Positions 16,527 through 17,809 of a DNA stretch of 37,193 bases are shown here, one piece after another. Numbering within the stretch: position 1 is the stretch's first letter; the number at the start of each line of letters is the position of its first letter. The notes under the pieces were generated by a model. The model was given only the letters and a program-made list of their open reading frames with translations, had not been told where the DNA came from and searched no databases. The position numbers were made by a program, and so were the translations under genes. Origin of the DNA: a virus (Duplodnaviria; Heunggongvirae; Uroviricota; Caudoviricetes); IMG/VR virus record IMGVR_UViG_2534681832_000017, positions 1 to 37,193 of that record, one strand, 5' to 3'.

Positions 16527-16682
16527 GTGTCATCCAAGGTTAATTATGAGTCGCTGGCATCGGTCATGCCGCGTAATGAACAGGAAACAGATGCTGTAGT
16601 GGACCCTGTAATCGCTGAAATGAATGCTCGCCTGGAGGCTGAATTTGCAGTTGAGAATGAACATACCACCCAGGGCGACTAG
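16527..16682 (+). CDS. hypothetical small protein
   Basis: GTG at 16527 with SD GGGAGA 7 nt upstream preferred over track ATG 16494. Confidence 0.4.
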   Translation: MSSKVNYESLASVMPRNEQETDAVVDPVIAEMNARLEAEFAVENEHTTQGD

Positions 16683-17286
16683 GACTGTTTTTTGTGTCGG
16701 TAGCGGTCCGTCACTCACTCGTGAGGACTGTGCTGCTATAGAAAAAACTGGCTGTTCAATCATCGCGGTTAACAATTCCTGGCAGATGTTCGATGACATT
16801 TATGCCTTATACGCCGGTGATTTGTCATGGTGGAAGCAATACGGTTCCACCATACCGGGAGGGAGGTTCCGCAAAGTGACAGCCAACCTGGCAGCGGCGA
16901 AATCATTTTCGTTGGAGTACAGGCGATATTGTGGACCGGCGGAAGGGGTAAATAGCGGCGCGCAGGCTATCAGTCTGGCGGCTGAATCAGGGGCTGAAGT
17001 AGTTGTATTAGTCGGCTATGACTGTTCTCTGCAAAACGGCCTTCATTGGCATGGCGCGCACCCTCAAGCACTACGGAATCCAACGCAGGTGTCTATTTCA
17101 AAATGGCAACAGCAGTTCCTGGATACCCGCAAAAAACACGCAGATTTACATATTTTGAATGCAAGTAGGAGCAGTGCAATTCAATGTTTCCCAAGAATAA
17201 ATTTAGAGGCAGTGATCGCGTTATTATCGTCGGCAGTGGCCCAAGCGCCGCAAACTTTGTTGCGCCGCGCGGAGTGCCGATTATAG
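16657..17286 (+). CDS. putative glycosyltransferase-fold protein (CstII / DUF115-like), copy 1
   Basis: N-terminal FCVGSGPSL...IIAVNN and central GVNSGAQAISLAAESGAEVVVLVGYD resemble the GNGPSL / nucleotide-sugar-binding signatures of GT42-type and DUF115 proteins (recalled). Confidence 0.45.
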   Translation: MNIPPRATRTVFCVGSGPSLTREDCAAIEKTGCSIIAVNNSWQMFDDIYALYAGDLSWWKQYGSTIPGGRFRKVTANLAAAKSFSLEYRRYCGPAEGVNSGAQAISLAAESGAEVVVLVGYDCSLQNGLHWHGAHPQALRNPTQVSISKWQQQFLDTRKKHADLHILNASRSSAIQCFPRINLEAVIALLSSAVAQAPQTLLRRAECRL

Positions 17287-17809
17287 CGGTCAATGGGGCC
17301 ATCGACTGGCTTAACCGCGCTTCTTATTTTTCACACTTGATCCATCGCCAGACAATATGCGGCGCGTTGGTCGTGGCCGCCGTCGCCGTGGTGTTTGTTA
17401 TTGCATGGCACTACCCGATGTTAAAGAACGTGAAGTCAGAGACGGCGTTCTGTGCTTCCGTCGTGTGGCTGAACGCGGCATGGAGCCAAAAAATACGAAT
17501 TCTCCCGAGTGGTGGGCGTGGCGCTGGTCCGGACATTTCGGCCTTTGCGAAGATGAGAATGAAATTGCCAGCGGCAATAGTGCATATGGTGCTCTGAACC
17601 TGGCTTTCCATATCGGATTCAAACATGTAGCCCTGGTGGGCGTTGACGCTACGCAAGAACCACGAGTTCACTCCGGCGGCACGCCAAAAAATCTAAGTCA
17701 CCTGCCTTTGTTATTCCAGTCTGCGCGTGAACAGATTGACGTTGTTTCATGCGGGAAAATGGGAGGTATTCCGCAGATGACTCTTAAAGAATGGCTGAAG
17801 AATACATGA
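17184..17809 (+). pseudogene. tandem paralogue of the preceding gene, interrupted by a frameshift (or sequencing error) between about 17350 and 17500
   Basis: N-terminal half IIVGSGPS...IIAVNG in frame of ORF 17184-17597; C-terminal half PEWWAW...SGNSAYGALNLAFHIGFKHVALVGVD in frame of ORF 17357-17809; third frame closed. Confidence 0.45.

Follow-up and report, generated by a model that had tools for sequence, protein, structure and literature searches.

The window, the whole 37,193-nucleotide stretch of viral DNA analysed here, is a P1-like phage-plasmid (Punavirus). It is 98.7% identical to P1 at the nucleotide level, and it shares with the P1 and P7 annotation the gene order pmgM-N-O-P-ppp-pmgQ, including the pmgO-pmgP-ppp-pmgQ synteny behind the C1 operator Oppp. 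This operator (formerly Op83) lies on the minus strand at 16467-16483, where the minus-strand reading of the region is TATGCACTAATTAATTT, and together with the promoter PpmgN (approximately 16428-16454) it heads the operon pmgN-pmgO-pmgP-ppp-pmgQ. Both positions are carried over from the P1 annotation, having been placed from AF234172 (L001, 1529-1555 and 1568-1584) via the 98.7% identical alignment, and the P1 annotation gives the operon a sigma-70 promoter under C1 control rather than a late promoter.

All genes of the operon are on the plus strand. The small ORF at 16494-16682 is the homologue of pmgN (P7 hdmA; PHROG 2350, E 5e-45; P1 and P7 annotation), and its 3' end overlaps the start of pmgO (P7 hdmB; 16624-17286), which is intact and encodes a putative DUF115/MptE-like (Maf/CstII-like) glycosyltransferase of 220 aa. 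This is the same gene as P1 pmgO and P7 hdmB, with no notable difference, and its start codon varies by annotation: the P1 and P7 records give 220 aa, whereas PGAP calls a 166-aa product. The last 103 nt of pmgO overlap pmgP (P7 hdmC) in a different frame; the pmgP start codon, ATG 17184, has AGGAG 12 nt upstream. Both pmgO and pmgP are already known P1 genes. Downstream, ppp (17791-18483) encodes a lambda-NinI-like Ser/Thr metallophosphatase (Pfam Metallophos, E 9e-16; P1 annotation). Alternatively, ppp may start at ATG 17806, which shares bases with the pmgP stop codon in an ATGA (sequence ACATGATAG), and a 225-aa ppp gene is called in the Logan contig L118; the ATGA overlap implies that ppp translation is coupled to that of pmgP. 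The last gene, pmgQ (P7 hdmD; 18480-19181), encodes a GT-A glycosyltransferase of GT8-like type, in which the DxD motif reads LDLDTV (PHROG 1962 "glycosyltransferase", E 1e-127).

The missing base in pmgP

Hundreds of P1-like plasmids, like P1 and P7 themselves, carry pmgP as a single intact gene of 627 nt and 208 aa, and the PHROG 2111 profile matches P1 PmgP from end to end (E 2.7e-132, 1-208/208). The single continuous ORF of approximately 200-210 codons that characterizes the family is absent from the window. As the initial annotation had correctly read, two adjacent, overlapping ORFs lie here and the second is split by frame: the 220-aa ORF at 16624-17286 is followed in the ORF list by ORFs at 17184-17597 and 17357-17809. 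The window gene occupies the same operon position as the genes for P1 PmgP (AAQ14059.1) and P7 HdmC (AAQ07554.1) and is 98-99% identical to them in nucleotide sequence with one gap, but whereas those two are uninterrupted, the window allele has five thymines (T5) at 17327-17331, the site of a 1-nt deletion, and is divided into ORFs of 137 and 150 aa. The run is T6 in P1, P7, pO111_2 and approximately 98% of P1-like sequences. It falls in the codons of an invariant YFFTLD motif, in which residues F50, L52 and D53 never vary across the PmgP family alignment.

The 5' part of pmgP in its authentic frame (17184-17331, from the ORF list and alignment with P1, P7 and pO111_2) codes for residues M1 to approximately F49, among them the nucleotide-binding motif VIIVGSGPS...IIAVNG, and without correction this frame reads on to a TGA at 17595-17597 to give the 137-aa ORF. 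The 3' part in its authentic frame (17327-17809), from FFTLDPS to KEWLKNT and the stop codon, holds the GNSAYGAL...VALVGVDAT...NLSHLPLLF core and is listed as the 150-aa ORF from ATG 17357, before which there is no Shine-Dalgarno sequence. The missing T is the sole indel across an 11.5 kb alignment of the window with P1 and the sole difference between the window pmgP and that of pO111_2, and the frame-restored window PmgP is WP_000484113.1 of pO111_2. Comparison with P1, P7 and pO111_2 therefore displaces the suggestion that an insertion at 17350-17500 caused the frame change, since a single base restores one continuous frame, an outcome that the initial annotation had itself named as refuting its reading. 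That segment looks inserted only against the paralogue PmgO, relative to which PmgP has a specific segment of approximately 35 aa; against its relatives it codes for a portion of the core conserved across the PmgP family, N..R....RR.GV.Y, which every intact relative reads in frame. Its description as GC-rich holds only mildly: GC content is 54%, compared with 52% over the gene, and 61% is reached solely in 17350-17400, where Arg codons lie. A second homopolymer in pmgP, an A6 run at 17488-17493, is intact in the window and has frameshifted alleles in other assemblies. No further gene-breaking indel was found in the window where it aligns with P1 and pO111_2, a span of more than 25 kb; an apparent T-run gap in tciB (near 6074) proved to be an alignment-edge artefact, and tciB is intact.

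Null allele, miscalled base or recoding

How might a pmgP allele that differs from an intact one by a single base have arisen? On balance we favor T5 as a real null allele, a very recent loss-of-function mutation and not a site of programmed recoding. Ribosomes starting at ATG 17184 would leave the authentic frame after approximately residue 49 and stop at 17597, yielding a 137-aa protein that lacks the catalytic core; the 150-aa ORF further downstream would have neither a ribosome-binding site nor the nucleotide-binding loop. It is for these reasons that the window pmgP would be null. Expression of ppp and pmgQ is probably lowered too by the deletion, as the ppp start codon and the usual pmgP stop overlap in ATGA. 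Loss of pmgP is evidently tolerated. [quoted passage not shown] The gene is thus dispensable for plaque formation in the laboratory, so that real null alleles are to be expected, and further truncated pmgP alleles circulate in the databases.

Homopolymers are the classic miscall site for 454, Ion Torrent, PacBio and Nanopore sequencing, and it is quite possible, though less likely than a real mutation, that the phage truly carries T6 and encodes an intact 208-aa PmgP, with the split ORFs a base-calling or assembly artefact. The rarity of T5 is consistent with such an error: T6 outnumbers T5 by 111 to 2 among IMG/VR stretches and by 194 to 3 among the fetched loci; and the best 60 plasmid matches and the best 60 E. 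coli matches all span 627 nt. A related-locus search with the PmgP alignment returned P1-like loci only (98-100% identical), with intact 208-aa matches in 80 loci. A scan of metagenome contigs for T5 gave no match, and the sole genome-contig match to the T5 22-mer (L209) arose by chance, in a Eubacterium MAG with no relation to P1-like phages. The window pmgP also bears no sign of decay, being identical to the pO111_2 allele apart from the gap, and the two substitutions beside it, 17335 C>A and 17347 C>G, are both synonymous in the restored downstream frame.

The carriers of T5 are the window, L118, L004, L005 and pRM10386-1, and they speak on both sides. Extra homopolymer undercalls lie near T5 in three of the four others, as an error would predict: L118 has A7-to-A6 undercalls at two other A runs, breaking pmgS; L005 is also one T short in the pmgO T6 run; and pRM10386-1 has four homopolymer deletions within 3 kb, the annotation "frameshifted" on both pmgM and pmgP, and A5 at the pmgP A6 run. 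Against an error, L118 (SRR094958) is a second assembly, 99.93% identical to the window, that shares T5 yet differs from it at two other A runs, the IMG/VR contig L004 has T5 as its sole indel against P1 over 9.4 kb, and the window itself, with no other gene-breaking indel, is not a generally error-ridden assembly. The occurrence of T5 on at least three backgrounds 1-2% apart fits a systematic error and a mutational hot spot alike. Of the origins first proposed for the split gene, a pseudogene and a sequencing error are therefore both live options.

Independent assemblies repeatedly show frameshift alleles at the two tracts, at the T run in the five T5 carriers and at the A run in protein cluster P0065 (137-aa products shifting after EPK; 14 members from approximately 37 contigs, including E. 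coli O26:H11 CVM10026), and P0024 combines T5 with a compensating shift. Such a pattern could be read as a contingency switch, in which the T6 and A6 tracts of pmgP slip appreciably often and turn a glycosylation module on and off; the proposed model would be the Campylobacter maf, cstII-type and LOS transferase genes, which are phase-variable via homopolymer tracts. We think this most improbable. Known contingency loci usually have tracts of 8 nt or more, whereas those of pmgP are only 6 nt, and the T6 run arises incidentally from the codons for the conserved residues Y-F-F. The variants amount to only approximately 2%, are confounded by sequencing error, and are length differences seen between assemblies.

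The initial annotation had also raised a recoding site. In such a case a -1 ribosomal frameshift or transcriptional slippage would restore full-length PmgP from T5. A -1 shift at TAT-TTT (17325-17330) would indeed restore the authentic frame, and tRNA-Phe could in principle re-pair on U_UUU. However, the junction heptamer, T_TAT_TTT, is not of the X_XXY_YYZ form and tRNA-Tyr cannot re-pair on it; the minimum free energy fold of 17320-17420 is no better than that of shuffled sequences (z 0.10), and its first predicted helix lies approximately 40 nt downstream, not at the 5-9 nt expected of a stimulatory structure. A run of five T is too short for efficient transcriptional slippage, T5 is a rare, derived state with a single frame in approximately 98% of relatives, and the two-frame arrangement is not conserved, as P1, P7 and distant homologues have single ORFs. 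Recoding is accordingly scarcely credible here. A PmgO-PmgP fusion produced by -1 frameshifting within the 103-nt overlap was likewise considered and is unsupported. A -1 shift at either of two heptamers in the pmgO frame, T_TTC_CCA (17187-17193) and A_AAT_TTA (17199-17205), would bring ribosomes into the frame of pmgP, but A_AAT_TTA is absent in the Salmonella P1-like locus L206, both are absent in L119 and L120, and in L120 the relation of pmgO to pmgP is +1.

Whether a truly broken copy or a base-calling fault, the lesion in this known, non-essential accessory gene of P1 is minor, and an annotation should record the gene as pmgP with a frameshift at a homopolymer.

PmgO, PmgP and a putative glycosylation module

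PmgO and PmgP are paralogues that diverged long ago, and both have the DUF115/MptE-like fold that is also that of the transferases Maf, CstII and WaaZ. The resemblance noticed between the two ORFs was well founded: the N-terminal VGSGPS...IIAVN motif is in both (BLASTP of the motif piece, E 0.003), as is the central NSG/NSA..A..LA...(V/L)VG(Y/V)D block (hhalign, 162 columns, probability 98%, E 1.4e-13). The motifs G-x-G-P-S, N, (N/T)-S-G/A and G-x-D are invariant or near-invariant in both family alignments and are mutually aligned by hhalign. What had been described as a tandem duplication is thus sound as homology and fails as a recent event: PmgO belongs to PHROG 4603 (annotated "alpha-2,3-sialyltransferase") and PmgP to PHROG 2111, cross-matches between them reach only 1e-5 to 6e-4, the two proteins are approximately 23% identical in the profile alignment, and PmgP occurs without PmgO in four of seven unrelated phage contexts.

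The DUF115/CstII-like fold proposed at the outset is borne out for both proteins, being common to Maf, MptE and CstII. Against Pfam PF01973 (MptE-like), PmgO scores 23.4 bits and the N-terminal fragment of PmgP 11.9 bits, both below the gathering score of 34.6, which some family members pass (P0171, 44.6 bits; P0243, 44.1 bits). NCBIfam gave no significant match, and PADLOC none for PmgO, PmgP, Ppp or PmgQ. For the partner protein PmgQ, a profile of four homologues matches the GT8 Skp1 alpha-galactosyltransferase 6mw5 (E 9.8e-6), with glycogenins below threshold; D79-L-D81 (DxD) is invariant, and the Pfam GT8 score itself is below threshold.

A PmgQ-like gene adjoins the PmgP-like gene in all seven unrelated phage contexts, and a PmgO-like gene lies beside it in three. 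Natural fusions join PmgO to PmgP (P0171), PmgP to PmgQ (P0204, P0274), PmgQ to PmgP (P0295), and PmgQ to PmgP and a methyltransferase (P0255). Going by fold, gene context and fusions only, we infer that PmgP, PmgO and the GT8-like PmgQ form a phage-encoded glycosylation module, for which virion proteins and the LPS core are candidate targets; the donor of the DUF115-type enzymes would plausibly be a CMP-activated ulosonic acid such as CMP-Kdo. The "putative morphogenetic" P1 genes pmgO, pmgP and pmgQ have been without explanation since 2004, and they resemble one conserved glycosylation module found across many unrelated phages of Proteobacteria and backed by gene fusions. Since deletion mutants of all three exist, virion or LPS glycosylation is readily testable. 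A bolder scheme, which we regard as rather unlikely, is a widespread phage glycosylation machine in which a DUF115 heteromer using a host CMP-ulosonic acid (e.g., CMP-Kdo) acts with a GT8-type hexosyltransferase, with or without a methyltransferase, to glycosylate virion proteins or alter the LPS core (the P1 receptor), and in which the T6 and A6 tracts ease loss or switching. The idea of a PmgO-PmgP heteromer comes from the P0171 fusion.

How do these proteins compare with characterized members of the fold? Sequence similarity to the GT42 enzymes CstI and CstII of C. jejuni (PDB 2P56, 1RO7) is not significant: the PmgO profile gave E 0.23-0.73 against the CstII chains in PDB and the PmgP profile had no match. 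Typical E. coli K-12 hosts are not known to make CMP-Neu5Ac. The Maf flagellin glycosyltransferase of Magnetospirillum (PDB 5MU5) is a 632-aa protein with additional flagellin-binding domains at its N and C termini, whereas PmgO and PmgP, approximately 200 aa long and 15-17% identical to it, each consist of a catalytic-size domain alone, and the PmgO/PmgP neighborhood contains no flagellin or nonulosonic-acid biosynthesis genes. E. coli WaaZ, the Kdo III transferase (TIGR04437/PF27901; 283 aa), which works on the LPS inner core, gives weak, consistent matches: E 0.1 for PmgP against TIGR04437, a faint PF27901 match in the P0171 fusion, and an hhalign alignment with PmgP in which the NSA...VGVD core and the C-terminus align at a probability of only 12-16%, far below family thresholds. 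Kinship with WaaZ/WaaJ was set aside, the alignments being weak throughout (hhalign probability 12-29%).

The DUF115/MptE-like fold also includes pyrophosphokinases, which counts against a functional assignment from fold. The archaeal 6-hydroxymethylpterin pyrophosphokinase MptE (the PF01973 founder; PDB 8SD5) and the thiamine pyrophosphokinases are ATP-dependent small-molecule kinases; glycan assembly fits PmgO and PmgP better, because of adjacency to and fusion with a GT8-like glycosyltransferase and methyltransferases.

A parallel in gene arrangement is the virion glycosylation of mycobacteriophages. The enzyme families differ from those of P1, for which virion glycosylation is a candidate role, and capsid glycosylation by such phage genes is an idea cited in PMC11256854. 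In mycobacteriophages the glycosyltransferase genes stand next to the capsid gene, and the PmgP/PmgQ genes are likewise found in or beside the late, structural module, following the major capsid gene directly or past one connector gene in a Pseudomonas and an Ochrobactrum prophage.

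Locus identity and the break in pmgP

What interrupts the reading frame of the second of these two genes? The region 16400-18000 matches phage P1 across its full length (98.7% identity by megablast) and also other punaviruses, among them P7, SJ46 and RCS47, and the genes are the already known P1 genes pmgO and pmgP. In the P1 and P7 annotations the order is pmgM, pmgN, pmgO, pmgP, ppp, pmgQ, with a predicted promoter, PpmgN, and the C1 operator Oppp ahead of them; P7 nomenclature uses hdmA, hdmB, hdmC and hdmD for pmgN, pmgO, pmgP and pmgQ and leaves ppp unchanged. The P1 record calls PmgP and PmgM 'norphogenetic protein', a misspelling copied into hundreds of database entries. 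In the ORF list, pmgO occupies 16624-17286 (220 aa) and pmgP is represented by a 137-aa ORF (17184-17597) and a 150-aa ORF (17357-17809), all three in different frames; pmgP of P1 and P7 is one ORF of 627 nt, 208 codons. The pmgO and pmgP genes overlap by 103 nt (17184-17286), and the pmgP stop overlaps an alternative start of ppp as ATGA (17806-17809), which suggests pmgP-ppp translational coupling. PGAP and the Logan gene call start ppp at this ATG 17806 (225 aa), the P1 annotation at ATG 17791. PGAP starts drop the GSGPS loop in many records, giving a PmgO of 166 aa and a PmgP of 178 aa.

The initial annotation was right that pmgP is frameshifted: its two ORFs result from one T missing relative to P1, P7 and pO111_2, and this one-base indel is what separates it from the continuous frame of the orthologous loci. 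Aligned with the 627-nt pmgP of P1 and P7, the corresponding 626 nt of the window show a single gap, where the window reads TTATTTTTCAC and P1 and P7 read TTATTTTTTCAC, that is, five T residues at 17327-17331 (T5) instead of six (T6). The gap is the sole indel in 11.5 kb aligned to P1 (window 10740-22213, 98.7% identity), and the missing T is the sole difference from the nearest pmgP allele, that of plasmid pO111_2 from E. coli O111:H-. Two substitutions just 3' of the gap, 17335 C>A and 17347 C>G, are silent once the PmgP frame is restored and also occur in intact pmgP alleles. Since the alignments contain only this gap, the frame is lost through deletion of one nucleotide at 17327-17331, outside 17350-17500, the segment previously described as insertion-like and GC-rich. 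That segment has a mild GC excess (54% vs 52% for pmgP; 61% in the 50 nt coding for RRVGRGRRRRG) and, in the family alignment, codes for a conserved portion of the PmgP family.

Elsewhere, the window has T7 and A7 at intergenic positions 4007 and 4145, near tRNA genes, where P1 has T6 and A6, and at 4498 one T more in a tRNA D-loop than pO111_2. Window 22213-29215 does not align with P1; pO111_2, whose genes in that region are ead/Ea22-like, DUF4752, DUF551 and ASCH, matches both ends but not the middle (roughly 23465-25000). This region of the P1-like backbone is accessory and variable.

A recoding site had also been proposed, but recoding at the T run, by programmed -1 frameshifting or transcriptional slippage, is very unlikely, and we give next to no weight to full-length PmgP being made across the break. 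A -1 shift would be required, the junction T_TAT_TTT is no slippery heptamer, and the 100 nt downstream fold like shuffles (z 0.10). The two-frame state is moreover rare and derived: T6 occurs in 111 IMG/VR stretches vs two with T5, and in 194 fetched loci vs three, and the pmgP match spans 627 nt in 60/60 best plasmid records and 60/60 best complete E. coli records. ATG 17357, which opens the 150-aa ORF, has no Shine-Dalgarno sequence. Within the gene overlap, the pmgO frame contains the heptamers T_TTC_CCA (17187-17193) and A_AAT_TTA (17199-17205), at either of which a -1 shift would enter the pmgP frame and yield a PmgO-PmgP fusion. Locus L207 has A_AAA_AAT at the equivalent position; the Salmonella P1-like locus L206 and the non-P1 loci L119 and L120 lack an equivalent, and the heptamers are therefore probably chance.

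Null allele or base-calling error

The alternative of pseudogene or sequencing error holds up. The feature is real and was correctly spotted, yet it is ordinary: a one-base homopolymer deletion in pmgP that reflects a recent knockout or else an error of base calling. We lean towards T5 being a real null allele; a base-calling artefact is possible but more doubtful, and a phase-variable switch is improbable. The homopolymer location of the lesion and the absence of other decay in the window pmgP favour error, whereas the absence of any further gene-breaking indel in the window relative to P1 or pO111_2 argues against it. The sole complete plasmid found with T5, pRM10386-1 (RefSeq NZ_CP028125.1, 21288-24377), also points to error, with four single-base homopolymer deletions in 3 kb, two in pmgM and two in pmgP; PGAP labels both genes "frameshifted" and annotates no pmgO, and the sequence looks like an unpolished long-read assembly. 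Similarly, a T5 IMG/VR contig (L005) is additionally one T short in the T6 run of pmgO, and in a T5 Logan contig (L118) two A7 runs are undercalled as A6, one at window 20062, breaking its pmgS, and one at 22387. However, L118 is an independent assembly (SRR094958) that has T5 yet differs from the window at other homopolymers. It is equivalent to window 17306-22626, only 21 nt of which precede the T run, and is 99.93% identical, with two A/G substitutions (22272 and 22309); its source may be the same strain as the window or a sister strain.

Also against error, IMG/VR contig L004 is otherwise clean over 9.4 kb, T5 being the exception, and pmgP is dispensable: it is non-essential by CRISPRi (PMC10695390), and an in-frame deletion has been made in a study that reported essentiality for just pmgA, B, C, G and R (PMC9024508). 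Other truncated pmgP alleles exist as well. Indels at a second frameshift site, the A6 run at 17488-17493, characterize protein cluster P0065 (14 members, ~37 contigs, among them E. coli O26:H11 CVM10026), whose 137-aa products end in ...MVHMVL; pRM10386-1 has A5 at this run, and cluster P0024 is a pmgP allele with T5 and a compensating shift.

The deletion falls within the codons of the YFFTLD motif, of which F50, L52 and D53 are invariant in the PmgP family alignment. If T5 is a real allele, the 137-aa product would retain the first beta-alpha unit only, and the 150-aa ORF would lack both the GSGPS loop and a ribosome-binding site. Because ppp ATG 17806 overlaps the pmgP stop, the early stop at 17597 should lower coupled ppp translation, perhaps also that of pmgQ; the frameshift may thus be polar on both genes.

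Kinship of PmgO and PmgP and the proposed module with PmgQ

PmgO and PmgP are ancient paralogues, and the tandem duplication first suggested is not a recent one. Pairwise BLASTP aligns the N-terminal motif alone (E 0.003), the proteins belong to separate PHROG families (PmgO to phrog_4603, E 4e-74; PmgP to phrog_2111, E 3e-132) with weak reciprocal cross-matches (6e-4 and 1.8e-5), and PmgP was without PmgO in four of the seven other contexts examined. Alignments of 42 PmgP-like and 34 PmgO-like proteins match end to end by hhalign over 162 columns (probability 98%, E 1.4e-13), and a central PmgP segment of ~35 residues is family-specific relative to the PmgO profile. Both families are widespread, PmgP comprising 646 clusters (50% identity) at E <= 1e-3. 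The proposed DUF115/CstII resemblance stands at the level of fold, the AlphaFold models being confident (pLDDT 94.1 for PmgP, 85.5 for PmgO), but not in sequence, where Pfam MptE-like scores are under the gathering threshold and CstII matches are not significant.

A PmgQ-like gene is adjacent to the PmgP-like gene or one gene off in all seven unrelated contexts, three of which also have a PmgO-like gene. Five of the contexts are prophages (of Citrobacter, Pseudomonas, Ochrobactrum, E. coli and Alloalcanivorax), one is a prophage remnant and one a lytic phage that carries RNR genes; the loci are L120 6433-8835, L121 7001-8213, L119 6402-8186, and L201-L204. The module lies directly 3' of the major capsid gene in the Pseudomonas prophage, is separated from the capsid gene by one connector gene in that of Ochrobactrum, or lies between lysis genes and terminase; a methyltransferase gene separates the pair in L202, and L120 has an additional GT-A-like gene (8254-8835). 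Fusions join PmgO to PmgP (P0171, 376 aa, L208 5001-6131), PmgP to PmgQ (P0204, P0274), PmgQ to PmgP (P0295), PmgQ to PmgP and a SAM methyltransferase (P0255), and a methyltransferase to PmgP (P0292), and are Rosetta-stone evidence that PmgO, PmgP and PmgQ act in one pathway or complex. The PmgQ-homologue profile matches the GT8 Skp1 alpha-galactosyltransferase 6mw5 (E 9.8e-6), with glycogenins below threshold, and the DxD motif is invariant in PmgQ homologues. Adjacency, fusions and a GT8-like PmgQ with DxD together indicate one multi-enzyme glycosylation pathway, with PmgP as its constant DUF115-type component. Wider interest is limited to this by-product, the putative conserved phage glycosylation module pmgO/pmgP/pmgQ.

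Our literature search found no published function assignment for these genes, PADLOC gave no matches, and BFVD holds many uncharacterised MptE-like phage proteins. A pyrophosphokinase activity, like that of MptE and thiamine pyrophosphokinases, is possible. The donors used by characterised transferases of the fold, namely Maf, CstII and WaaZ, are CMP-activated ulosonic acids, and faint matches to WaaZ were seen. CMP-Kdo is the only CMP-ulosonic acid known to be shared by all these hosts and is for that reason a candidate, if a speculative one, for the donor. Virion proteins are a candidate target that would fit the late/structural gene location and the analogy with Maf and GT8 protein glycosylation. 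The LPS core, the receptor of P1, is another, and would be analogous to the targets of CstII, WaaZ and the GT8 LPS enzymes.
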